Positions 5,023-62,233 of a DNA stretch of 64,000 nt are shown here, in pieces. The notes beneath the pieces are model-generated. The model worked only from the letters and a program-made list of their open reading frames with translations, ran no database searches and was not told the origin of the DNA. Made by a program: the position numbers and the translations under genes. Within the stretch, counting starts at the first letter, position 1. Each line of letters opens with the position of its first letter. The DNA lies in the NCBI GenBank assembly GCA_963718575.1, contig OY970358.1, forward strand, positions 728,108-792,107, read 5' to 3'. The DNA is from an uncultured bacterium. GTDB lineage: Bacteria > Patescibacteriota > Minisyncoccia > UBA6257 > 2-01-FULL-56-20.

Positions 5023-5051
5023 TAAAACGAATTCGGTATTTTTATTTGTAG

Positions 5052-5122
5052 AGCGGGTAACGGGAATCGAACCCGTGTCTCAACCTTGGGAAGGTCGCGT
5101 TCTGCCACTGAACCATACCCGC
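5052..5122 (-). tRNA. tRNA-Gly (anticodon CCC)
   Basis: Reverse complement reads GCGGGTA..TGGTTCAGTGGCAGAACG..CGACC-TTCCCAA-GGTTG..GGGTTCGATTCCCGT..TACCCGC. It has a 7-bp acceptor stem, a T-arm, and CCC in the anticodon loop. No CCA is encoded. Confidence 0.85.
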
Positions 5123-8334: not shown

Positions 8335-8594
8335 ATCTCAAAACCCTCCTAGTATTTTGATTTGGTAAGGTGCCGCTCGTTTTTTGCGGGGACTTCCGGC
8401 CCCCTGCGGTGCTAGATGTATAGCATAATTTAATACAAAAGTCAACGCGTTTTGTTGCATTTTATCCTGCTTTGTTGTATAACCATGGGAGTTAGTTCCG
8501 TTTATAGCACCTTGTCAAATACATTTTTTTGGCTCTTTTGTTTTTTTTACACCCACTAAAGAGTCGAAAAAATAACATAACATCTAAATATCGA

Positions 8595-11543
8595 ATGAAT
8601 ACATTCATTCATCAGTTTTTCACACCCAGGCGGAGTGTGGCAAAGGGATTTCACTTTATCGTGCTCCTTGCCGCATTTGCTGTGGGCGCTTTTAGTTTTG
8701 TCGCATTCAACGGGGGAATGGTTCCTTCGGTCCCGGTTGCGCATGCGCAAACAAGTTGCTCTCTCTCGGCGAACATCTTGGGTTCGGTAAGTAATGCAAC
8801 TCCTAATGTTGGAGATACGATTACCTATACCTTCGACACCAACACTTTCGGCGGAGCGGGAGTTCCGGCATCAACTTCGGTCACCATTGTTATGGCGAGC
8901 GGTACATTGCCGACAGGACTCACGTTTATTTCCTCGTCGACTTCTGGCGGACCGTATTCTGGTACGTGGTCGGGCGGAGTGATTACTTTCACTGTTACCG
9001 CAACTGTTAATGCCACCGGAACGATCGAATATGCTCCGACCTTCCAGTATAGCGATGGAGGTCAGTGCACGGACAGTATGACTGTCGCTCAGCAACCTTC
9101 TCCGGTGACCATTATTTCAACCACTCCATCAGCCGACCTCTCGATCAGCAAGACCGCTGACGCGACCTCGACGATGGTGGGCGATACGGTGGACTACGCG
9201 ATCACGGTAAAAAATCACAGCGGTTCCACGACGTCCACGGGCGCTGTGGCAACCGATATGTTGCCTTCTCAGCTTACCTTCGAAAATGCAACGGCTTCGG
9301 CCGGCACTTCGTATGCAAGCTCGACGGGTATCTGGACGATCGGCGATCTCTCGCCGAACGCCGCTGTGACGCTCGATGTCGTCGCACTCGTGAACGCGAG
9401 CGCAAGCTCTACGATCACGAATACGGCAACGGTGTCCGCAAGCACGACGGATTCGAACCTTACGAACAACAGTTCGTCAGTGACGATCGTCGTCCTGCAG
9501 GCGCCGACGTCCACGCCGACATCGACCATCCCTTTGGCCGACCTCTCCATTAACAAGACCGTTGATGCGACGTCGACCATGATAGGTGATACGTTGCATT
9601 ACACGGTTGCGGTGACGGACAATGGTCCGGCAACCTCGACCGGCGTCGTGGCGACCGACACGTTGCCGACGAGCCTTACGTTCATGAACGCGACCGCATC
9701 GGTCGGTTCTTACGCGAGCTCGACAGGCACATGGACAATCGGCGATCTCTCGCCTAGCTCGACCGCGACGCTCGACATTGCAGCGCTCGTGAATGCGAAT
9801 GCCTCCGGCACCGTCACGAACACTGCGATCGTCGGTGAAACGGCAAGCACGACGGATAACAACCTTGGGAACAACAGTTCCACGGTGACAATCCCGGTGT
9901 TTACCTCGACCCCGACGTCCACACCGACGTCAACGCCTGTTGCTGACCTCGCGATCGTAAAGACCGCGGACGTCACTTCGACCGTGGCGGGCGGCACGAT
10001 CAACTATACGTTGACCGCGACCGCATACGGCCCTGCGACGTCGACCGGCGTCGTGGCGACGGACGTTTTGCCGAACACATTGACCTTTGTTTCAGCAACC
10101 TCTTCGGAAGGCTCCTACGCGAGCTCGACGGGGATCTGGACGATCGGCGATATGAGCGCAAGCTCGACCGCAACGTTGACCATCGCAACCGTCGTGAACA
10201 GCGGCGTTGCGAGCACGACGATCGCGAATACCGGAACAATAACGGAATCGACGAGTACGGTGAATAACAATCCGAACACGTCATCGACTGTCATCGTATT
10301 GATCCCGCCGGTTGTTTGCACGACGAACTGCGGCGGAGGTGGCGGCAATGATGCCGGCCTTACGATCACGAAGACCGTGGATGCGACGACCACCCTTCCG
10401 GGTAATGTCGTGAATTACACGATCACCGCGACCGCGAACGGCCCTCAGCCTTCGACTGGCGTCGTCGCGACCGACACGTTGCCTTCCGGACTCACGTTCG
10501 TGAATGCGACGACGTCGGCAAGCACGACCTACGCGAGCTCGACAGGCACATGGACGATCGGCACGCTTGCGCCGAACGCCACTGCGACCCTTCAGATCGC
10601 GGCGCTTGTGAACGCGAGCGATACCGCGGGCATGGTCATCACCAATCAGGCGACCATCGGCGAATCGCCGACGCTCACAAACACCAATCCGGTGACGACG
10701 GCAGAAGCGACCACGACGGTTGCGGCTGCTCCATCCACCGGGACGGACCTTCAGATCCTGAAGGCCGTCGATAACGCGAGCCCGGTCACGGGCGGTACGG
10801 TCAACTTCACGATTCTCGTGACGAACGACAGTACCGCGACGACGACGTTCGTTGTGGCGCAAGACCAGTTGCCGATCGGATTGGCATTGATCTCCGCGAC
10901 GACGACGGCGAGCACGACCTACGACATGTCGACCGGCATCTGGAACATCGGAACGCTCTCTCCGGAGGCGACGACGACCTTGACTATCGCGGCAGAAGTT
11001 TCGGCAGCGGCCGGGACTCAGGTCACAAATACCGCGACTGTGACATCGACCCTCTCATCGTTCGTTGATATAGATCCTGCGAACAACAGTTCGTCGGTGA
11101 CGCTCAACGTCCAGGCCGCTCCTTGCACGAGCAATTGCGGCGGAGGCGGTGGCGGTGGCGGCGGCGGTGGTGGAACCCCGAGCGCGCAGATCGGCATTGT
11201 GAAGACGGTGGATAACGCCGACCCGGAAACGGGCGCCATCATCCATTACACATTGACCGTGAACGCGACCGGGCCGAGCGAATCGTTCGGCGTTGTGGCA
11301 TCAGACACGTTGCCTGCGGGAATCGCCTTTGACTCAGCATCCTCTTCGGAAGGTTCCTACGCGAGCTCGACGGGGATCTGGACGATTGGTGATATGGCCG
11401 CGGGGCAAAGCGCGACCTTGGTGATCACCGCAACGGTGACCGCACCTGACGGTACGACGATCACGAACACCGGAACGGTGTCACGAATCACCGACCGTCA
11501 TCAGTCCGCTTACCGGACCCATGACATCAAGTGTAACTATTGA
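8595..11543 (+). CDS. Giant DUF11-repeat surface protein, N-terminal 983 aa (continues in the +1 frame to 11970)
   Basis: Start at MNTFIHQ...TM/signal. About seven ~130-aa repeats fit the DUF11 'conserved repeat domain' (ADLSI.KTAD.TST..GDT..Y..TV.N.G..TSTGVVATD.LP..LTF..AT.S.GSYASSTG.WTIGDLS). Repeats are separated by T/S linkers and CxxNCGGGGG poly-Gly hinges. Confidence 0.7.
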   Translation: MNTFIHQFFTPRRSVAKGFHFIVLLAAFAVGAFSFVAFNGGMVPSVPVAHAQTSCSLSANILGSVSNATPNVGDTITYTFDTNTFGGAGVPASTSVTIVMASGTLPTGLTFISSSTSGGPYSGTWSGGVITFTVTATVNATGTIEYAPTFQYSDGGQCTDSMTVAQQPSPVTIISTTPSADLSISKTADATSTMVGDTVDYAITVKNHSGSTTSTGAVATDMLPSQLTFENATASAGTSYASSTGIWTIGDLSPNAAVTLDVVALVNASASSTITNTATVSASTTDSNLTNNSSSVTIVVLQAPTSTPTSTIPLADLSINKTVDATSTMIGDTLHYTVAVTDNGPATSTGVVATDTLPTSLTFMNATASVGSYASSTGTWTIGDLSPSSTATLDIAALVNANASGTVTNTAIVGETASTTDNNLGNNSSTVTIPVFTSTPTSTPTSTPVADLAIVKTADVTSTVAGGTINYTLTATAYGPATSTGVVATDVLPNTLTFVSATSSEGSYASSTGIWTIGDMSASSTATLTIATVVNSGVASTTIANTGTITESTSTVNNNPNTSSTVIVLIPPVVCTTNCGGGGGNDAGLTITKTVDATTTLPGNVVNYTITATANGPQPSTGVVATDTLPSGLTFVNATTSASTTYASSTGTWTIGTLAPNATATLQIAALVNASDTAGMVITNQATIGESPTLTNTNPVTTAEATTTVAAAPSTGTDLQILKAVDNASPVTGGTVNFTILVTNDSTATTTFVVAQDQLPIGLALISATTTASTTYDMSTGIWNIGTLSPEATTTLTIAAEVSAAAGTQVTNTATVTSTLSSFVDIDPANNSSSVTLNVQAAPCTSNCGGGGGGGGGGGGTPSAQIGIVKTVDNADPETGAIIHYTLTVNATGPSESFGVVASDTLPAGIAFDSASSSEGSYASSTGIWTIGDMAAGQSATLVITATVTAPDGTTITNTGTVSRITDRHQSAYRTHDIKCNY

Positions 11544-11970
11544 TGTTGGTGGATCGGGTGGCGGCGGGGGAGGCGGTGGCGGTGGTGGCCAGGTACTCGG
11601 CGCAAGCACGAGTACGGGCCAGGTTCTCGGCGCAAGCTGCGGACTTTACCTTGACCAGTACATCCATCCCATCCGCAAGAACCTGAACGATCCGACGGAA
11701 GTTGATAAGCTTCAGACATTCCTCAATCAGGAATTGGGCATCAACTTGCCGATCACGGGTTACTATGGCGACTCTACGATCGCCGCAGTGAATCAATTCC
11801 AGGTAAAGTACTATAACGAAGTGCTTAAACCATGGCTTCCGCTCGGACTTCCGACGGAGTTCACTCCGACGAGCTATGTTTATCAAACGACACAGCGGTG
11901 GATCAACCTCATCATGTGCCCTCCGCTCAACATCCCGATGCCGACGCTTCATGTCGACAACGGAGAATAG
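11485..11970 (+). CDS. C-terminal portion of the DUF11 surface protein in the +1 frame: poly-Gly hinge plus peptidoglycan-binding-like domain
   Basis: Frame B reads ...ESPTVISPLTGPMTSSVTIDVGGSGGGGGGGGGGGQVLGAS..., continuing the repeat/hinge pattern. The C-terminal 'GYYGDSTIAAVNQFQ' resembles a PG_binding_1 motif. The frame switch is at ~11484 (one extra nucleotide). Confidence 0.55.
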   Translation, partial: ESPTVISPLTGPMTSSVTIDVGGSGGGGGGGGGGGQVLGASTSTGQVLGASCGLYLDQYIHPIRKNLNDPTEVDKLQTFLNQELGINLPITGYYGDSTIAAVNQFQVKYYNEVLKPWLPLGLPTEFTPTSYVYQTTQRWINLIMCPPLNIPMPTLHVDNGE

Positions 11971-12017
11971 CTGATTATTCCGGAAAGGGCTTCGCCCTCG
12001 GCAGTGATCTTCTCTTG

Positions 12018-12060
12018 GATAACACAACACCCCGCGCATTGCGCGGGGTGTTGTGTTATC
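12018..12060. repeat. Perfect 20-bp inverted repeat (stem-loop) between the DUF11 gene and the CAP gene
   Basis: gataacacaacaccccgcgc-att-gcgcggggtgttgtgttatc. No U-tract follows. A TATAAT-like box and the CAP gene start lie just downstream. Confidence 0.6.
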
Positions 12061-12085
12061 GGGATAGTTATGATATAATATTTCC

Positions 12086-12749
12086 ATGATGACACGTGCG
12101 AGGGAGGCTTTCAGAAATTATTTTGTCCCGCATGAGGGCAATGACAACCGGCCGCATATCCTGCGTCCGCGCACGATCGCGTTCGTGGTGGCGATCGCGC
12201 TCGTGGCGGAATCGGCGTTCGTGTTCGGCGTAAAATATATCGTTCCGCAATCGAAATTGTTCGGCATTATTGATGCGAACGTGCTCGTGGATGAGACCAA
12301 CCAGCAGCGCGTGGCGAACGGTTTGCCGGATCTTCAGGTGAGCCCGTTGCTTACAGCGGCGGCACAGGACAAGGCGAATGACGAAGCGAGCAAGGGATAT
12401 TTTGCGCATACGAGTCCGCAGGGGCTCACGCCGTGGTATTGGTTCCAGCAGGTCGGTTACAGCTTTGATTATGCCGGTGAAAATCTTGCCGTGAATTTTT
12501 CCGATTCACAGGATGTGACGGCCGCGTGGATGAACTCGCCGGAACACCGCGCGAATATTTTAAGCGCCGATTTTACGCAGATCGGCATGGCCACTGCGCA
12601 AGGCGTCTATGAAGGCCAGGAGACCACGTTCGTGGTGGAGGAATTCGGCACGCCCGCGCCGGCGGCGGCTCCCACGCCGTTCGTGGATACGGCGAGCGCG
12701 GCGACGGCGCCCGTGACAGCGCCGGCTCCTATACGCGACGCCTCCGGTG
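12086..12749 (+). CDS. CAP/SCP (YkwD-like) domain protein, N-terminal part (frame A)
   Basis: The CAP-domain block 'GYFAHTSPQGLTPWYWFQQVGYSFDYAGENLAVNF...AAWMNSPEHRANILSADFTQIGMA' follows an N-terminal TM helix. Frame A becomes Arg-rich nonsense after ~12750. Confidence 0.7.
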
Positions 12750-13163
12750 AAAAAGCCGGTGGCAAAACCGGCGCCGGTTTCCGTCACGCCCGTGCCGGTC
12801 ATCGTCGCGATGCAAAGTTCATCCGCGCCCGGAGCGCAGCAGACATTCATCGCCGTGCAGAATGGCACGGCAACGCAGACCGTTCCGACGGCCGCGAGCG
12901 TCGGCGTCACCGCCGCCGACACGCCGCTTCCCGCGCAGAGCAATGTCATCCAGCAGATCCTCTCCGATCCGAAAGCGCTCGCCAATGATTTCTATATTTT
13001 TGTGATGGTGTTGTTCTTCATCGCCCTCACGCTGAACATCTTTGTGAACATCCGCGTGCAATATCCGCGGCTCATCGCCGGAGGGTTGCTCGTCATTGTG
13101 GTGGCGGGACTCTGCGTTGTGCTGAATCAGAATATCGGGTTCTTGCACGTGATAGTGCTGTAA
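12750..13163 (+). CDS. C-terminal part of the CAP-domain protein in the +1 frame (Pro/Ala linker plus C-terminal TM helices)
   Basis: Frame B reads KKPVAKPAPVSVTPVPV...NDFYIFVMVLFFIALTLNIFVNI...LLVIVVAGLCVVL. The frame switch is next to the 'gtgaaaaagcc' A5 run. Confidence 0.5.
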   Translation, partial: KKPVAKPAPVSVTPVPVIVAMQSSSAPGAQQTFIAVQNGTATQTVPTAASVGVTAADTPLPAQSNVIQQILSDPKALANDFYIFVMVLFFIALTLNIFVNIRVQYPRLIAGGLLVIVVAGLCVVLNQNIGFLHVIVL

Positions 13164-32577: not shown

Positions 32578-32657
32578 CCAGCCGCCATAACAAGTGGGTC
32601 ATTAAATCTATTTAAAATGGACTATTTCCTTGCTGCGCCGTAGAATAAGTATTATCT

Positions 32658-35116
32658 ATGACTTCCTACGACCCCAAGAGCATCGAAGAAAAGTGGAATA
32701 AAAAATGGCTGGCCGACAAGGTTTTCAAGGCCGCCGACGATTCCGCGAAGCCGAAATATTATCAGCTCGAGACGTTCCCGTATCCGTCCGCGGCGGGATT
32801 GCATATGGGTCATCCAAAAGGCTATACCGCCGAGGATATCCACGCGCGCTACATGCGCATGCGCGGCCGCGAAGTGCTTTACACGATGGGTTGGGATGCC
32901 TTCGGACTCCCGACGGAGAATTATGCCATCAAGGTAGGGAAGCCGCCGAAGGAAGTTGCGCTCGCGAATACGGATAACTTCCGTCGTCAGGTGCAGATGT
33001 TCGGGTTCTCGTACGACTGGGATCGGGAGATCGACACATCCTCGCCGGAATATTATAAGTGGACGCAGTGGCTGTTCCTCCAGCTTCTATAAAAAAGGGT
33101 TGGCGTATCGCAAGGAAGCAAAAGTGAACTGGTGTCCGAAGGATCAGACCGTGCTTGCGAACGAGCAGGTGGTTGACGGTAAGTGCGAGCGGTGCGGCAG
33201 TGAGATCGAGGAGCGCATGATGGAGCAGTGGTTCTTGAAGATCACCGATTATGCGGATCGTTTGCTCGCCGACCTGAAAGGCCTCGACTGGCCCTCGGCG
33301 ACGGTCAAACGCCAGGAGGATTGGATCGGAAAGAGCGAAGGGGCGGAAATTTCGTTCCTTCTCGATTTCAAAAAAAATCCGGCGGACAACGATCGTCGCG
33401 GACCGGATGGCGAGCGCGCCGCGCTGACCGTATTCACGACGCGTCCGGATACGCTCTTCGGCGCCACGTATTTGGTGCTCGCGCCGGAGCATCCGTGGGT
33501 CACGCTCGCGCTCGATGACCAGCACGACGTGTTATTAAATAAAGATGAAGTGAAGGCATATGCAGAAGCGACATCGCACAAGACCGACCGCATGCGTCAG
33601 GAGGATGTAAAAGACAAGACCGGCGTCGAGCTGAAGGGCGTGATGGCGATCAACCCGGCAACGAAGGAGGAAATTCCGATCTGGGTTGCGGACTACGTAC
33701 TCGGCTCGTATGGCACCGGCGCGATCATGGCGGTGCCCGCACACGACGAGCGCGATTTTGATTTTGCGAAGAAGTTCGGATTGCCGATAAAAAGAGTGAT
33801 TGCCGGCGAAGGTGAATTTTCAACCGGCTATGGCGTGTTGATCGATTCCGGAACGTTTACCGGTATGGATTCCGAAAAGGCAAAAGCGGAAATCACAAAG
33901 TTTGCCGGCGGGAAATTAAAGACACAATACAAGATCCGCGACTGGTCCGTGTCGCGCCAGCGGTATTGGGGAGTGCCGATCCCGATGATTCACTGTCTAA
34001 AGGATGGCATCGTGCCGGTGCCGGAAAAGGATCTGCCCGTGGTCCTGCCCGACCTCGAGAACTATCGTCCGCAGGGGATGCCGCCGCTCGCGAGTTCGCC
34101 GGCCTTCATCAACGTAAAGTGCCCTCAGTGCGGCGGCGATGCCAAGCGCGATGCGGAGACGCTCGATACATTCGTGGATTCATCGTGGTACTTCTTACGC
34201 TATCCGGATCCGCACAACGCGGCGGAAATTTTTGGCAAGGAAAAAGTGGAGCACTGGATGCCGGTGGATATCTATGTGATCGGCGCGGAGCACACCGTTC
34301 TCCACTTACTCTACTCGCGCTTTGTCACAAAATTCCTGCATGACGAAGGATATTTCTCATTTACCGAACCGTTCGCGAAGCTTCGGCATCAAGGACTCAT
34401 CATGCGGCACCGACGGCGCGAAGATGTCCAAGAGCCGCGGCAACGTGGTGAACCCGGATGAGATCGTCGCCGAGTTCGGCACCGATGCGACCCGCATGTA
34501 TTTGATGTTCATGGGGCCGTTCGAGGACGGCGCGCCGTGGGATGTAAAAGGAATTTTGGGGGTGGAGCGTTTTTTGAAGCGATTTTGGAAATATTGCGGT
34601 GGTGCTTTGGAAAAATCGTCCGACGCACCCGAACAATCTTCCGCGCGCGCTACTCTCCATCGCACCATCAAAAAGGTGGGGGAGGACATCGAGGCGTTCA
34701 AATTCAACACCGCGATCTCGGCGCTTATGATACTCTTAAATGAGCTGGAGGCGTCCGCGCCGCTCGCGAAGGAAGATGCCGTGGCGTTGGTGAAGATCAT
34801 CCATCCGTTTGCGCCGCACATGGCACAGGAATTGTGGTCGCTCATGGGCAACGCGAATTATCTGGATTTCGAGCCGTGGCCGGCGTATGATCCGGCGCTC
34901 ATTGCGCAAGAGAAGATCACGATCGTGTTTCAGGTGAACGGAAAGACAAAAGACAATGTGGCGGTGGATGCTACGATAGAAGAGGCTGATGCAAAGGAAA
35001 TGGCGCTCGCGAATGAAAAAGTGAAGGCGGCGCTCGCGGCAGGCGGCCTGGCAGCGGGTGCGCCGCCGAAGCGCATTATCTACGTGGATAAAAAACTAGT
35101 GAACATCGTCATTTAA
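32658..35116 (+). CDS. leuS: Leucyl-tRNA synthetase, interrupted by two apparent +1 frameshifts (~33087 and ~34407)
   Basis: Three consecutive ORFs (32658..33092, 32956..34461, 34322..35116) together give an uninterrupted LeuS. The first junction is ...WTQWLFLQL|YKKGLAYRKEAKVNWCP.... The second is ...FAKLRHQGLIM|GTDGAKMSKSRGNVVNPDE... (the KMSKS motif). Each junction shows one extra C. Confidence 0.85.
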
Positions 35117-46513: not shown

Positions 46514-47422
46514 ATGTTCACTATTATTTCGCGCATATTCCATTTTGGCTTCAAAAACTTCTGGCGGAACGGCTGGCTTTCGACCGCGACGATCGCGATC
46601 ATGACGCTTGCGTCCGTCGGATTCCTCGGCCTCATCATTTTCGGTGTCGTCACGAACGCGGCGGCGAACGCCATTCAGAGCAAGATCGATATCAGCGTCT
46701 ATTTCAATACGAATACATCGGAGGATGAGATCCTGAACATCCAGCAGTCGCTCGAAGGATTGTCGCAGGTGGCGAGCGTGAATTATATCTCCCAGGACCA
46801 GGCGCTCGCGACGTTCCAGCAGAATCACGCGAACGATCCGACGGTCAGCCAGGCGGTGAACGAGCTCGATACGAATCCGCTCGAAGCGTCGCTGAACATC
46901 ACCGCGAAGGATCCGAGCGAGTACGGCGCGATCAACGACTATCTCACCTCTCCCGATCTTGCCTCGTATATCGACACGATCAGCTATTCGCAGAATCAGG
47001 ATGTGATCAACCGGCTTGCGGCGATCGTGCGCGACGTTTCGATCGGCGGATGGATCGTCACGATCTTCCTTGCGCTCGTCGCGGGGCTCGTCATCTTCAA
47101 TACGATCCGTCTTGCGATCTATTCCAACCGCGAGGAGATCGGCGTGATGCGCGTGGTGGGCGCTTCGAACAGCCTGGTGCGCGGGCCGTTCGTGGTGGAG
47201 GGGATGCTATGGGGATTGATCGCTGCGGTCATCAGCCTCATTCTGTTCGCGCCTGCGCTCTATTTTGTCTCGCCCTACCTCAGTGAATTCGGCATTGGCA
47301 TGAATGTGTTCCAGTATTTTTATACCCATATCATCCAGCTGTTTGTCTATGAACTTCTGTTCGGCGTGGTCATCGGGGGACTCTCTAGCTTCTGGGCGGT
47401 CCGCCGCTATTTGAAGAACTAG
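46514..47422 (+). CDS. ftsX: Cell division permease-like protein FtsX
   Basis: N-terminal TM, a large extracytoplasmic domain, three C-terminal TM helices, and the conserved 'IYSNREEIGVMRVVGAS' block. Confidence 0.85.
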   Translation: MFTIISRIFHFGFKNFWRNGWLSTATIAIMTLASVGFLGLIIFGVVTNAAANAIQSKIDISVYFNTNTSEDEILNIQQSLEGLSQVASVNYISQDQALATFQQNHANDPTVSQAVNELDTNPLEASLNITAKDPSEYGAINDYLTSPDLASYIDTISYSQNQDVINRLAAIVRDVSIGGWIVTIFLALVAGLVIFNTIRLAIYSNREEIGVMRVVGASNSLVRGPFVVEGMLWGLIAAVISLILFAPALYFVSPYLSEFGIGMNVFQYFYTHIIQLFVYELLFGVVIGGLSSFWAVRRYLKN

Positions 47423-47424
47423 CC

Positions 47425-48405
47425 TTGAACGAAAACCCCTCACAAGATATGCCGCCCGTGCCGCCGGCGGAGGAATCCAGTCAGCCGCCCTCGCATCACG
47501 ACGCGCCGGCGGCGTCGCGCAAAAAGAAAGCGCGCCGGCGTCTGGTCATCATTGCTGTCGTCGTGGTGCTCGCCGGCGGCATACTCTGGTATTTTCAAAA
47601 ATCGTTCTCATTGCCGTTGAGGAATATTGCCGCATTCGGGAACTCCGTCGAGACATCGATGAACAGTCAGCTCGCGCAGAACTTTTCCGCACCGTCACCG
47701 TTACAGCAGATCTCGAAGACCGCGCCGAAAAGAGCGAATACGCTCACCGATGCCGGGATCGTCATGCAGACAAACCTTCAGCGAGCGCAAAACGGCGATC
47801 TTCCGCCGCTCACCGAGAATGCCACGCTCGACGACATCGCCACGCTTCGCATCGATGACATGTTCGCCGGGCAATACTTTGCCCACGTCAATTCCTCGAC
47901 GGGGGAAAGCGCGATCACGGTTGCGAGCAGTGTGGGATATTCTTATCTTGCGCTGGGGGAGAATCTTGCGCTGGGAAATTATGCCGGCGACGCCGGGGTG
48001 GTTGCCGCGTGGATGGCGAGTCCCGGCCACCGCGCGAACATTTTGAATACGCATTATTCGGAGATCGGCGTCGCCGTGCGCGAGGGGATGTTCCAGGGAT
48101 CCGAAGCGTGGATTGCCGTGCAGGTATTCGGCCGGCCCGCCTCTGCGTGCACCGTTCCCGACCCGAATTTAAAGACCACCATAGACCTTTCCGAAAATCA
48201 AATCACCGCGATGGCGACACAGCTTCAGTCCGACAAGGCTGTCATCGACGCCATGTCCCCGCAATCCGGGCCTGCCTATAATGCCCAGGTGGAGGATTAC
48301 AACAATCTCGCGGCGGAGTACAACGATCTCGCGGCGCAGACCCAGACGGCGATCGGGGGATATGACGCGGAGGTGGCTGCATTCAATGCCTGTCTTTCCG
48401 AATAG
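47425..48405 (+). CDS. Membrane-anchored CAP/SCP (YkwD-like) domain protein with C-terminal coiled-coil-like tail, directly downstream of ftsEX
   Basis: TM helix, then 'GQYFAHVNSSTGESA...LGENLALGNY...AAWMASPGHRANILNTHYSEIGVAV', the CAP domain, paralogous to 12086. The tail is AEYNDLAAQTQTAIGGYDAEVAAFNA. Confidence 0.7.
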   Translation: MNENPSQDMPPVPPAEESSQPPSHHDAPAASRKKKARRRLVIIAVVVVLAGGILWYFQKSFSLPLRNIAAFGNSVETSMNSQLAQNFSAPSPLQQISKTAPKRANTLTDAGIVMQTNLQRAQNGDLPPLTENATLDDIATLRIDDMFAGQYFAHVNSSTGESAITVASSVGYSYLALGENLALGNYAGDAGVVAAWMASPGHRANILNTHYSEIGVAVREGMFQGSEAWIAVQVFGRPASACTVPDPNLKTTIDLSENQITAMATQLQSDKAVIDAMSPQSGPAYNAQVEDYNNLAAEYNDLAAQTQTAIGGYDAEVAAFNACLSE

Positions 48406-58714: not shown

Positions 58715-58726
58715 TACAGTAAGAAG

Positions 58727-59941
58727 GTGAAGAAGGTAATATGCAGCGCCATATTCTTCGGGGCATTGTTTCCGGTTCTCATTGCGAGCGCCCAGATTTA
58801 TAATGCGGCGAATTCTATGCAGTTGACGGTCACGGTGGTATATCCTCCGGTCGCTCCCGCTGACCTTAATGCCACGACAACATCGAGTTCGGAGATCGAT
58901 CTTTCTTGGGTGACTACCAGTACGAATCAGGCCGGATTTTCCATAGAAGAGTCGGTGGGGAACGATGCTCTTTTTACACCGATCGACACGGTCGGGCCGG
59001 CGGCCAGGAGTTATTCACGCACCGGACTTTTGCCGAGCACGACCTATTTCTATCGGGTGAGGGCGTATAATGGCGCGGGTTCAAGTGCGCCGTCCAACGA
59101 AGCCGCCGCAACGACATCCGCTGCTCCTTCGGGCAATACCGGCGGCGGATCGGGTGCCGGCGGTTCTTCCGGTGGCGGTGGAGGAGGAGGCGGATCGTCA
59201 TATGTGCCGCCGGTCTTCCAGACGTCGGCGATGTTCAGCGGTATCGCATATCCATTGAGCACGGTCACGCTCCTTGAAAATGGCCAGGTTGCCGCCGTGA
59301 CGCAATCGGGGCCTGATGCAACATTCCAAATAAACCTTGCGAATCTTCCGGCCGGAACATATAACTTTGGGGTCTCTGCAAAGGATCCGCAGGGAAACCA
59401 TTCGGCCATCCAGACGTTTTCAAGCACCCTCACTCCCGGCGCGGAGACGGTGATCAGCGGGATATTTTTCCCGCCTACCATCACCGCAGATAAAGTGCAG
59501 GTGAAGCGGGGGGATGTGCTTACATTATTCGGATACGCCGCGCCACAAGGGCAGGTTGCCGTGATGGTCAATTCCCTGAATGAGATCTCGGCGACCGTGA
59601 CATCGACCGCGTCGGGGCTATGGACCTATCCGGTGAGCACCGACCAGCTGGAGATGGGAGGGCACACGGCGCATGTGTGGGAAGCAGCCGACGGCAACGT
59701 GACGCCGGATTCGGAAATATTCTCATTCACGGTCGGCAATACCGACGTTGCTGCGCCGCCGGTATCGGCGGGTCCGTCGAAAGGCGATGTGAACGGAGAC
59801 GGGAAAGTAAACCTCCTTGATTTTTCGATCATGGCCTATTGGTGGGGAAAGTCGAATCCGCCGGCGACGTTGCGGCTCGACGGCAAACCGGAGATCGACC
59901 TTGCCGATTTCAGCATCATGGCATATTACTGGACCGGCTGA
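58727..59941 (+). CDS. Secreted FN3-domain protein with C-terminal type-I-like dockerin
   Basis: GTG start and signal peptide. FN3 region (PADLNATTTSSSEIDLSWV...STTYFYRVRAYNGAGSSAPS). Poly-Gly linker, Ig-like region, and C-terminal 'GDVNGDGKVNLLDFSIMAYWW...LDGKPEIDLADFSIMAYYW', two dockerin Ca-binding repeats. Confidence 0.7.
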   Translation: MKKVICSAIFFGALFPVLIASAQIYNAANSMQLTVTVVYPPVAPADLNATTTSSSEIDLSWVTTSTNQAGFSIEESVGNDALFTPIDTVGPAARSYSRTGLLPSTTYFYRVRAYNGAGSSAPSNEAAATTSAAPSGNTGGGSGAGGSSGGGGGGGGSSYVPPVFQTSAMFSGIAYPLSTVTLLENGQVAAVTQSGPDATFQINLANLPAGTYNFGVSAKDPQGNHSAIQTFSSTLTPGAETVISGIFFPPTITADKVQVKRGDVLTLFGYAAPQGQVAVMVNSLNEISATVTSTASGLWTYPVSTDQLEMGGHTAHVWEAADGNVTPDSEIFSFTVGNTDVAAPPVSAGPSKGDVNGDGKVNLLDFSIMAYWWGKSNPPATLRLDGKPEIDLADFSIMAYYWTG

Positions 59942-59942
59942 C

Positions 59943-60845
59943 ATGAAAAAAACATTCCCGGTGATAGTGTTTGCGATCGCGCTCATGTTTCCCTGGCGTT
60001 CATTCGCGTCCGTGATGACCATCGCGCCATCGCCCACGAACTCCGATATGATCGTGGTCAGCCTTGATACGCAGGGGGATTCCATCAATGCGATACAGGG
60101 ACATTTTACATTTGATACAAACGCATTTTTTGTGAATGAGGTGAGTGACGGAAATTCCATCGTCAATTTCTGGGTCGAGGCGCCGGCGTTTTCAAACACC
60201 TCCGGCACGTTGGATTTTGCGGGGATCATTCCCGGAGGGGAAGTGACAGCTGATGGAGTCATTGCCACGATCGGCATCACCCCGCGGGGATCGGTTGCGA
60301 CGTCGGGCTTTGCGCTCGTTTCCGCGCAGGCACTTTTGAATGACGGGAACGCGACGCCGTCGGACCTTTCCGTGGCAAGCAAGCCATTTCCGCTCGTGGC
60401 CGGAAGTGTTCCGCTGATAGGCCAGAACTCACTCGCGCCCGATCCGTTCACGCCACAGGTCGGCCGGGATCCGGGCATTTTCAACGGACAGTATTTCGTC
60501 GCCTTTACCGCCACGGACCAGGGATCCGGTATCGACCACTACAATGTGCTCGAGGTGCCGGCAGGGACGAAGATATCGACATCATCCGACTGGCAATGGG
60601 CGACCTCCCCTTATCTTCTCCGCGATCAGACGCTTTCAAGCGATATTTATGTGCGTGCGTTCGACGAGTCGGGAAATTTCCGCACGGAAGAGATCCCCGC
60701 AAAACATAAAAAGCCGGGGGGGTCGCTCCCGTGGGGGGATATCGGAATGTCCGCCGTAGCCATAGTGTTACTATTATTAGTGATAGGACTTATCCGCAAG
60801 CGTCGAACATGGAAAAGGAAACGATCCGCAGGAAATTTTGCGTAG
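59943..60845 (+). CDS. Membrane-anchored cohesin-domain protein 1
   Basis: Signal peptide MKKTFPVIVFAIALMF. Cohesin-like block 'DSINAIQGHFTFDTNAFFVNEVSDGNSIVNFWVEAP...GTLDFAGII...DGVIATIGITP'. A second beta domain contains 'SGIDHY'. C-terminal TM AVAIVLLLLVIGLI + RKRR. Starts 2 nt after the dockerin gene stop. Confidence 0.6.
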   Translation: MKKTFPVIVFAIALMFPWRSFASVMTIAPSPTNSDMIVVSLDTQGDSINAIQGHFTFDTNAFFVNEVSDGNSIVNFWVEAPAFSNTSGTLDFAGIIPGGEVTADGVIATIGITPRGSVATSGFALVSAQALLNDGNATPSDLSVASKPFPLVAGSVPLIGQNSLAPDPFTPQVGRDPGIFNGQYFVAFTATDQGSGIDHYNVLEVPAGTKISTSSDWQWATSPYLLRDQTLSSDIYVRAFDESGNFRTEEIPAKHKKPGGSLPWGDIGMSAVAIVLLLLVIGLIRKRRTWKRKRSAGNFA

Positions 60846-62233
60846 CACTTGGGGCCGTCGCGCTGTGTGTGGTTCTTTGGGGTGCCCATGACGCCCACGC
60901 GGCGATGCTTTCCCTCTCTCCGCAATCGGGAACCTATTTTACCGGGAGAAGCTTCAGCGTCTCCGTGGAAGTTTCCTCGCCCGGAGAGGCGATCAATGCG
61001 GTACAGGGCGAGGTCACTTTCCCGAAGAATGATCTCGAAGTGCTTTCGGTCTCTAAAGCGAATTCCGTTCTGAATCTCTGGGTGCAGGATCCGACATTTT
61101 CAAACCAGGATGGTACGGTTGATTTTGCGGGAGTCGTCCTGAGTCCCGGGTTTCAAGGCGCCGCCGGAAATGTAATTACGATCACCTTCGAAGCGAAGAG
61201 TGCCGGCGTCGCTCCGCTCTCGATCGATCCGGCGTCGGTGCTTGCGAATGACGGAAGCGGAACGGATATCTTGACCGCCACGCAGGGCGCTTCGTTCACG
61301 ATGGCTCCGCTTTCTACGGTGCCGGGTCCCCCGGCCACGGGAAACGTGAATATGGATATGGCATCGAGTACGGTGTCACCGTCGACCGTCATTACCTCGA
61401 GCCCGCTCATCACAAACGGAGCATGGTACAACATCAACCAGGTCACCTTTAACTGGAATGTTCCGGCGGGCGCCGACGGCATCAATTACATGATATCGAC
61501 CGACCCCAACCTCCACCTCCCGGACGTGAATCAAGGATTGGTCTCGCAGACCTCGTATGATCTTTCGAACTTTGCCGACGGCGTCTGGTACTTTTTTGTG
61601 AGCTTCGAAAATGGCAGTGTATGGTCGCCGCCGGCGGTGGAGAAGCTGATGCTTGATCGCACCCCGCCCGATTCATTTGTCATCACGCGGGAAGATACCG
61701 ACCTAACGGATCCCCAGCCGGTGTTCTCGTGGCTCGCGACCGACGGGATGTCTGGCATCGACCACTACGAAGCGAAGATCGGCGACGGTGACTGGTTCAA
61801 TCCTGCGAACTTTCAGAGTGGAAATTCATTGTATGCGTTGCCGGTTCAGTCACCGACGGCCGGCCGCTGGCTCACGGTGCGGGCGTTCGACAAGGCAGGG
61901 AATTATACCGATGCCTCGATCAGTTTCCGCGTGCTCGCGCCGGAGGCATCATGTGCGGGAGCCGCGACGTTATGCGCACTTTCCGAATTCTTCGTGCAGT
62001 GGAGCTGGTTGATGGTGTTCATGCTGATCATCCTTCTTATCGTGGCATACGGTTTTATCTATCATCTTCTACGGTGGAAGAAGCGTTCGTCGAAAGTATT
62101 GAAAAAATTCGAAGATATATTGAGCGGGGATCTCGGCGGACCTCACCTTTTAGCCGAACAGCCCGAACTCGAAAAAATCGTTCAGCCCGTTGTTGACGAT
62201 GTGAGGGAAGGGGGAGAAGGACCGAAGGAATAG
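60809..62233 (+). CDS. Membrane-anchored cohesin-domain protein 2
   Basis: Signal peptide. Cohesin-like block 'EAINAVQGEVTFPKNDLEVLSVSKANSVLNLWVQDP...GTVDFAGVV...NVITITFEAKSAG'. 'SGIDHY' beta domain shared with protein 1. C-terminal TM LMVFMLIILLIVAYGFIY + RWKKR. Overlaps the upstream gene by 37 nt. Confidence 0.6.
   Translation: MEKETIRRKFCVALGAVALCVVLWGAHDAHAAMLSLSPQSGTYFTGRSFSVSVEVSSPGEAINAVQGEVTFPKNDLEVLSVSKANSVLNLWVQDPTFSNQDGTVDFAGVVLSPGFQGAAGNVITITFEAKSAGVAPLSIDPASVLANDGSGTDILTATQGASFTMAPLSTVPGPPATGNVNMDMASSTVSPSTVITSSPLITNGAWYNINQVTFNWNVPAGADGINYMISTDPNLHLPDVNQGLVSQTSYDLSNFADGVWYFFVSFENGSVWSPPAVEKLMLDRTPPDSFVITREDTDLTDPQPVFSWLATDGMSGIDHYEAKIGDGDWFNPANFQSGNSLYALPVQSPTAGRWLTVRAFDKAGNYTDASISFRVLAPEASCAGAATLCALSEFFVQWSWLMVFMLIILLIVAYGFIYHLLRWKKRSSKVLKKFEDILSGDLGGPHLLAEQPELEKIVQPVVDDVREGGEGPKE

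Follow-up and report, generated by a model that had tools for sequence, protein, structure and literature searches.

We analysed a 64,000-nucleotide stretch of DNA (hereafter the window) from an uncultured bacterium of the Patescibacteriota (contig OY970358.1, positions 728,108 to 792,107 of the forward strand). The region 8595-11970 of this window is very probably a single gene of an ordinary kind, encoding a long, wall-anchored fibre on the surface of a tiny bacterium of the Patescibacteria (Candidate Phyla Radiation, CPR; Parcubacteria/Paceibacteria-type). As deposited, the region is divided between two overlapping open reading frames (ORFs): the first occupies frame 2 (8529/8595-11543, + strand) and has a conserved ATG at 8595, while the second occupies frame 0 (11521-11970, + strand), opens with an ATG at 11521 and encodes 149 amino acids (aa). 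Deletion of one base at 11484 joins both ORFs into a protein of 1124 aa, which consists, in this order, of a signal peptide, a divergent DUF11 domain, six canonical DUF11 domains, polyGly hinges, two QVLGAS motifs and a C-terminus of the PG_binding_1 type. The joined protein also contains Thr/Pro linkers, and its hinges comprise two of the CxxNC-polyGly kind and a third polyGly hinge; its eight cysteines form four local pairs (55/158, 575/579, 844/848, and 1015/1108). If the base is left in place, the frame-2 product has 982 aa (~100 kDa) and ends in ...VSRITDRHQSAYRTHDIKCNY, that is, ...TITNTGTVS is followed by 19 out-of-frame codons, and the frame-0 product resumes with ESPTVISPLTGPMTSSVTIDVGGSG11. 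The repaired protein spans the junction as ...TGTVSESPTVISPL.... A preliminary description of this DNA had estimated the protein at about 1150 aa; a long protein is indeed what we find, with the length now set at 1124 aa by the one-base deletion.

The first 51 residues (8595-8747, + strand) have the features of a signal peptide: a basic n-region is followed by a hydrophobic core (FHFIVLLAAFAVGAFSFVAF) and by the motif AHA↓Q, at which the precursor would be cut. This assignment was made by inspection and from the conservation of AHA in orthologues, not by a predictor; AHA is found again among the orthologues, and so is the N-terminal sequence MNTFI..FTP(K/R)R. A twin-arginine translocation (Tat) signal was also considered and is unlikely, as KR replaces RR in one close orthologue.

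The stalk that follows was identified with Pfam DUF11 (PF01345), which matched the 1124-aa protein in seven stretches with 539 bits (E 6e-165), in agreement with the DUF11 assignment made earlier. In NCBIfam, TIGR01451 (DUF11-type repeat) gave seven matches and TIGR04226 (isopeptide-forming fimbrial domain) gave 93 bits in six stretches. The preliminary description had counted seven tandem repeats of ~130 aa; seven stretches are what Pfam reports, with the qualification that one of them is a divergent N-terminal copy. This copy (aa 53-179; 8751-9131, + strand) has no isopeptide Lys, carries the Cys55/Cys158 pair, reaches 30.8 bits on its own against the DUF11 cut-off of 24.6 and shows a weak match to He_PIG (E 0.007). 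The six canonical repeats, delimited by self-alignment, extend over aa 180-984 (9132-11547, + strand) and measure ~121-147 aa each: R1 covers 9132-9536 (aa 180-314), R2 9537-9941 (aa 315-449), R3 9942-10352 (aa 450-586), R4 10353-10742 (aa 587-716), R5 10743-11183 (aa 717-863), and R6 11184-11547 (aa 864-984), all on the + strand. They are connected by PTSTPTST linkers or by polyGly hinges. In the DNA, Tandem Repeats Finder reported (GGN)n tracts only, the domain repeats of ~400 nucleotides (nt) being too diverged at this level.

DUF11 has been renamed CLIPPER (Costa et al., 2025; PMC12617251). In the crystal structure 9IFR, obtained from Acinetobacter silvestris B9T28_05395, Lys715 and Asn806 form an isopeptide bond whose formation is catalysed by a nearby Asp and which confers resistance to heat and proteases (PMC12617251). 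The corresponding Lys/Asp/Asn triad is invariant in all six canonical repeats of the protein described here, with a K-D spacing of 34-35 and a K-N spacing of 88-91 residues. A profile built from the six repeats matched 9IFR (E 7.6e-4) and aligned their Lys and Asn to K715 and N806; the invariant Asp was aligned to residue 749 by our own count, the catalytic residue being given as Asp-748 in PMC12617251. A phmmer search with the whole 1124-aa protein against the PDB sequences found no match, and the six-repeat profile was needed to reach 9IFR. The AlphaFold2 model of repeat 1 (predicted local distance difference test score, pLDDT, 87.8) has ten strands. When this model was compared with the PDB using Foldseek, the best match was again 9IFR (E 1.7e-6, template modelling scores, TM, 0.65/0.70), followed by integrin alpha-chain domains and Gram-positive isopeptide pilins. 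As modelled, the repeat is a CnaA-like immunoglobulin (Ig) beta-sandwich that resembles the solved CLIPPER domain, and the conserved triad predicts that a Lys-Asn isopeptide bond forms in each canonical repeat.

Three putative hinges were located along the protein. Hinge 1 (10317-10346, + strand) consists of CTTNC and then Gly5, encoded by a (GGN)5 tract at 10332-10346; hinge 2 (11124-11174, + strand) of CTSNC and then Gly12, encoded by (GGN)12 at 11139-11174; and hinge 3 (11548-11589, + strand) of GGS and then Gly11, encoded by (GGN)11 at 11557-11589. The preliminary description had proposed CxxNC-polyGly hinges at all three tracts, placed at 10305-10345, 11135-11175, and 11555-11585. The tracts are present, with the exact bounds given above, and the Cys motif precedes the first two of them; the third (GGSG11) has none. 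The lengths of the (GGN)n tracts are multiples of three. Of 15 orthologues, 11 have the arrangement C(T/S)xNC-Gn and a twelfth has CGSSC as a variant, the Gly runs ranging from 2 to 15 residues. In the 15 closest orthologues the longest Gly run ahead of the C-terminal domain has 4-18 residues, and internal runs reach up to 24. C(T/S)xNC probably closes into a small disulfide loop.

The C-terminal part begins with two QVLGAS motifs (QVLGASTSTGQVLGAS; 11590-11637, + strand), which place GxVLG directly before the last domain; the G, V, L, and G of this lead-in are nearly invariant in a 47-member alignment. The domain itself (aa 1015-1124 plus the stop codon; 11638-11970, + strand) is bracketed by the invariant Cys1015 and Cys1108 and has the helical-bundle fold of known peptidoglycan-binding domains. 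When the C-terminal 126 aa were searched alone, PG_binding_1 (PF01471) gave 26.1 bits against a cut-off of 23, so the PG_binding_1-like motif noticed earlier is recovered on this piece (the score in the full-length protein is discussed below). The domain may bind peptidoglycan non-covalently. A sortase (LPXTG) signal was considered and rejected: an LPITG look-alike is present at 11746-11760 (aa 1051-1055), at the V-D-G position of PG_binding_1 and inside the folded domain, and neither a hydrophobic helix nor a basic tail follows it.

The distribution of this C-terminal domain was examined across GTDB, each species being represented by one genome, and 232 loci encoding it were returned. Among the loci kept whose titles name a taxon, almost all are of the Patescibacteria type (Parcubacteria, Paceibacterota, Minisyncoccia, Saccharibacteria, and relatives). 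In 69 of 84 matches from these loci the tail after the module has at most 17 aa, and in the other 15 it has 54-155 aa; an [VIL]LG motif stands ahead of the domain in 79 of the 84. Two database relatives with longer tails, P0020 and P0023, carry an acidic linker plus a membrane helix at their ends. PG_binding_1 was matched by 41 of 47 full-length relatives, with a best E of 1.9e-13. The N-terminal parts of the 47 are of various kinds: DUF11 occurs in 15, and SpaA-type, InlB B-repeat, VWA, PA14, cadherin-like, and Big_9 domains were also found. Neither Pfam nor NCBIfam contains a dedicated model for the C-terminal module. Since it almost always sits at the extreme C-terminus of relatives with such varied adhesin-type N-terminal parts, the module is portable and occurs on many Patescibacteria surface proteins. 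The chances are about even that this GxVLG-Cys...Cys variant of PG_binding_1 is a phylum-wide wall-anchoring module, which replaces sortase signals on dozens of types of Patescibacteria adhesins. That many different surface proteins of Patescibacteria share the module is the one aspect of this analysis that is mildly new.

The interruption between the two ORFs lies inside R6, between the isopeptide Asn958 and the last beta-strand, and is due to a single surplus base in TCAC (11481-11484, + strand) that produces a +1 shift. In tblastn searches of the window with orthologue ORFs, the match ran in frame 3 as far as nt 11486 and continued in frame 1 from 11482-11485, the query residues being consecutive across the switch. 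When the DNA was aligned with that of 10 orthologues, exactly one surplus base was again seen, within TCAC 11481-11484. Both results bear out the one-base insertion at ~11484 suspected in the preliminary description. The surplus base can be placed anywhere in TCAC, because a Ser, His or Tyr codon results when one base is taken out, and both Ser and His are seen in orthologues at this position. Pfam is not able to judge the repair, since its match to repeat 6 stops at profile position 98-99 with or without it, and the orthologue alignments are therefore decisive.

In all 15 closest orthologous loci, which belong to metagenome-assembled genomes (MAGs) of other Patescibacteria, the stretch around the break is read in one uninterrupted frame. 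Of these, 14 have a full-length ORF (975-1680 aa) whose architecture matches that of the joined protein, and the remaining one (L011) is cut by the end of its contig. These loci come from short-read-style (k141_, NODE_) and long-read-style contigs alike. In addition, four short metagenome contigs of the Joint Genome Institute (JGI) read through the junction in one frame, for example as ...ITNTGTVSESPSV..., and NTGTVSESP is conserved across the break in JGI contigs and orthologues. The uninterrupted orthologues, their shared architecture and the conservation of NTGTVSESP support the earlier proposal of one wall-anchored adhesin-like protein. An exact-pattern scan of the JGI metagenome contigs for the junction found no sequence of the same strain, either with or without the extra base.

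The adhesin gene is not the only one affected. Including its break, at least five non-programmed shifts were found in the window (11484, ~12715, ~33085, ~34408, and ~44350), all consisting of one extra base outside homopolymers, and three of them lie in the essential single-copy genes leuS and prfB. The leuS gene (32649-35113, + strand) is spread over three frames. Positions 2-150 of tRNA-synt_1 are encoded in frame 2 (32649-33089), up to the first break at ~33085; the editing domain and tRNA-synt_1 positions 227-370 are in frame 0 (32938-34458); and, past the second break at ~34408, positions 371-403 and the anticodon domain are in frame 1 (34280-35113). As leuS is essential, these one-base insertions are almost certainly assembly errors. 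The prfB gene (release factor RF2; 44122-45176, + strand) contains the programmed +1 site CTT TGA C at 44191-44197, which is conserved across bacteria, and a second, non-canonical +1 shift near 44350 (44345-44355), between PCRF positions 45 and 72, which is a probable error. Finally, the CAP/SCP-domain gene directly downstream of the adhesin (12086-13163, + strand) changes frame between 12697 and 12735, the surplus base being plausibly the C in ATA[C]GCG. Orthologues of the CAP-domain gene (360-393 aa in the six inspected) end in membrane helices and are uninterrupted where the locus covers the whole gene. A paralogue of this gene lies at 47389-48402.

Comparable breaks occur in the relatives. 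On three contigs with orthologous loci, which have Flye-style or 'np1212' names (ENA assemblies), dnaG, the CAP-domain gene, and the adhesin gene are broken at other, non-conserved positions. Among nine long-read-style loci, +1 shifts prevail on some contigs and -1 shifts on others: they are mostly or all +1 in L001, L004, L006, and L012, and all -1 in L002 and L003. This bias by contig hints at systematic basecalling errors specific to the organism, perhaps linked to methylation. As for a motif shared by the five insertion sites of the window, at four of them the surplus base could be a C that directly precedes a G; this pattern was not relied upon, because the placement of the base is ambiguous over 3-4 nt in a genome of 55% GC. 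Many of the closest relatives are 'MFD' MAGs, to which some of the contigs with Flye-style names belong. The MFD long-read MAGs were assembled with Flye from nanopore reads only and polished once with Medaka, and residual indels in them are acknowledged (PMC12313526).

An assembly artefact is the most likely cause of the break in the adhesin gene, because at least four further one-base frameshifts occur in the same window, three of them in leuS and prfB. At the observed density of roughly one indel per 10 kb, the chance that a gene of 3.4 kb is hit is roughly one in four, far above any prior for a genuine new frameshift. We therefore consider it highly probable that the surplus base at 11481-11484 arose as a consensus error in an assembly made from long reads only, in which case the organism makes the full-length protein. 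Several points weigh against this interpretation of the locus. The break lies outside any homopolymer, the classic context of nanopore errors, and the bias of all five shifts in the same direction (insertion) lacks an explanation from first principles, although related nanopore contigs display this kind of bias as well. The nanopore-only origin of the contig is deduced from its relatives and from its length of 881,652 bp, a size also seen in circular MFD MAGs of Patescibacteria. Moreover, no known ligand-binding (adhesive) domain was recognised in the 1124-aa protein, and PG_binding_1 reaches 22.5 bits in the full-length protein, a borderline score just under the cut-off of 23.

A further objection is that the frameshift could be a genuine mutation of the strain or population, resulting either in a recent pseudogene or in a truncated secreted stalk, a 982-aa product without the final beta-strand of repeat 6 and without hinge or wall anchor. 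The surplus base is present in the deposited sequence, the 149-aa downstream ORF is a database protein, the site is not in a homopolymer, and surface proteins are often dispensable and variable. However, the frameshifts in leuS and prfB, at least three, cannot all be real, and the estimated rate of errors would by itself account for a break in a gene of this size in about one case out of four. Furthermore, the gene shows no other decay: the downstream frame stays open and is 67-85% identical to the orthologues. On balance, a genuine mutation is unlikely, although it is the alternative that survives best.

Far less probable is the arrangement found in the public annotation, that is, two separate genes, one for a DUF11 repeat protein and one for an independent peptidoglycan-binding protein of 149 aa. 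An ATG at 11521 does open the downstream frame, and several database relatives are entered as proteins of 130-150 aa. However, the short relatives P0007, P0011, and P0019 are on frameshift-ridden contigs with nanopore-style names, and further short relatives have out-of-frame stretches (P0011, P0019, P0025) or lie on contigs of <2.5 kb. The first 23 residues of the 149-aa ORF correspond to the last beta-strand and the hinge of repeat 6, and this ORF lacks a signal peptide, so that the wall-binding domain could not be exported alone. A consensus scan of the + strand between 8250 and 12200 found no sigma-70-like promoter site ahead of the 11521 ORF. The sole promoter-like site in this interval is TTTACA-16-AAAAAT at 8546-8573 (+ strand), which is a consensus match only, the count of such sites being no higher than in shuffled sequences. 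The preliminary description had held that a downstream ORF with its own promoter and without similarity to the repeats would speak against a single protein; we found no promoter-like site before the ORF, and its start is the end of repeat 6. The missing Shine-Dalgarno sequence before 11521 was dropped as evidence, since the true start at 8595 is also without one and the absence is therefore uninformative.

Least probable of all, with hardly any chance of being correct, are a programmed +1 ribosomal frameshift, a genome-wide +1 recoding, or a phase-variation switch that would govern the anchoring of the stalk: the five non-programmed shifts are all +1, and long (GGN)n tracts whose length varies between species lie nearby, but the shift occurs in none of the 15 orthologues, the site has no slippery codon with a stop or hungry codon (the zero frame continues for 19 codons), the extra base in TCAC is outside any repeat tract and 73 nt upstream of the nearest one, (GGN)11, the five sites have no convincing common motif, and related nanopore contigs have +1 or -1 shifts at unrelated positions of dnaG and the CAP-domain gene. 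The prfB site (44191-44197) and the break at 11484 are both +1 shifts; however, the latter is without the CTT TGA C motif and absent from all orthologues. Indeed, the only genuine programmed site of the window is the textbook one of prfB, which implies that programmed frameshifting in this organism, where it occurs at all, follows the standard mechanism. We give the same negligible weight to the idea that the five insertions are real and are read through by an unrecognised, motif-independent +1 recoding in this lineage of Patescibacteria; if it were true, the adhesin would be anchored or unanchored depending on the efficiency of recoding.

Taking the break as a consensus error, the full-length protein most probably works as follows. 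It would be exported by the Sec pathway and cut at AHA↓Q, as suggested by its N-terminal sequence and by the conservation of the motif in orthologues. The C-terminal domain, whose fold is that of peptidoglycan-binding domains, may then hold it non-covalently on peptidoglycan, for which both the cell's own wall and the wall of the host come into consideration. The six CLIPPER Ig-like domains, in which triad and fold are found, would form a rigid stalk, each locking itself through an autocatalytic, Asp-catalysed Lys-Asn isopeptide bond. By their composition, the PTSTPTST linkers and the three polyGly hinges, the first two with a Cys loop, would provide flexibility. The divergent N-terminal CLIPPER-like domain is a candidate tip domain: in this orientation it would be distal and could make the adhesive contact.

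The gene encodes a predicted CLIPPER-stalk fibrillar adhesin, here in Patescibacteria and with an anchor of the PG_binding_1 type. As in the CLIPPER fibrillar adhesins represented by 9IFR, it combines a signal peptide, a stalk of tandem CnaA-like Ig domains with the Lys/Asp/Asn triad, a terminal anchoring domain, and a small Cys loop at the end of some domains. It differs from them in several respects. Its host belongs to the Patescibacteria (CPR), a group unmentioned in the text of PMC12617251; where they have an OmpA-like domain or a sorting signal, its anchor is of the PG_binding_1 type; its Cys loop has the form CxxxC and runs into polyGly, whereas theirs is a CTTC tetrapeptide within the last strand; and a recognised adhesive head domain is absent. 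With the isopeptide pilins and MSCRAMM-type adhesins of Gram-positive bacteria (RrgB, BcpA, SpaD, EbpB) the protein shares an Ig-like stalk and intramolecular Lys-Asn bonds, which are predicted in our case. In contrast to the Gram-positive pilins, it has no sortase signal, membrane helix or charged tail, and it is a single polypeptide and not a polymerised pilus, with anchoring predicted to be non-covalent.

The C-terminal domain was also compared with PG_binding_1 domains of cell-wall enzymes, namely the N-terminal domain of SleB (6TCI), the Streptomyces DD-peptidase (1LBU), phiKZ gp144 (3BKH), and L,D-transpeptidases. Unlike in these enzymes, the domain is here carried by a non-enzymatic adhesin stalk; an insertion separates its helix 2 from the last helix, an invariant pair of Cys brackets it, and the conserved GxVLG leads into it. 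Within the phylum, highly expressed extracellular proteins with peptidoglycan-binding and Ig-like domains have been described in Paceibacteria, and a role in attachment to the host has been proposed for them (Kuroda et al., 2024; PMC10936435). These proteins come from the same phylum and class as ours and are secreted, as ours is predicted to be, with Ig-like and peptidoglycan-binding domains, a likeness of description. On the other hand, they were defined by expression and predicted structure, and their authors favour binding to the host over binding to the cell's own wall.

Attachment to the host cell is central to the lifestyle of episymbiotic Patescibacteria. The present gene adds this group to the hosts of CLIPPER-stalk fibrillar adhesins, which will not surprise specialists, and the adhesin and its C-terminal module should be useful for annotation and for choosing candidates in studies of attachment. 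For users of this assembly, the public annotation splits the adhesin gene, the CAP-domain gene, leuS, and prfB because the contig has about one indel per 10 kb, and any pseudogene or frameshift signal from it should be discounted until it has been polished.

Finally, some other features of the window were recorded. A perfect 20-bp hairpin with a 3-nt loop lies at 12018-12060 (+ strand), 48 nt past the stop codon of the adhesin gene and before the CAP-domain gene. It is the longest perfect hairpin of the window, the region 11965-12085 folds with -59.6 kcal/mol (z -7.3), and no T-run is present; the hairpin likely marks the end of the transcription unit, as a putative terminator, and its place after the stop at 11970 favours a single gene. 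A second large surface-protein region occupies 58715-62230 (+ strand). It extends across three frames that overlap, and a frameshift may be present here, too; fn3 and Big domains were seen in it together with a weak match to cohesin and a match to dockerin that is truncated at position 19 of 57, and 59171-59194 is a (GGN)8 tract. Just upstream of prfB, five tRNA genes (Ser-tga, Ala-ggc, Arg-cct, Ser-cga, and Thr-cgt) form a loose cluster at 40801-43782, and a tRNA-Gly (ccc) gene is located at 5051-5122.

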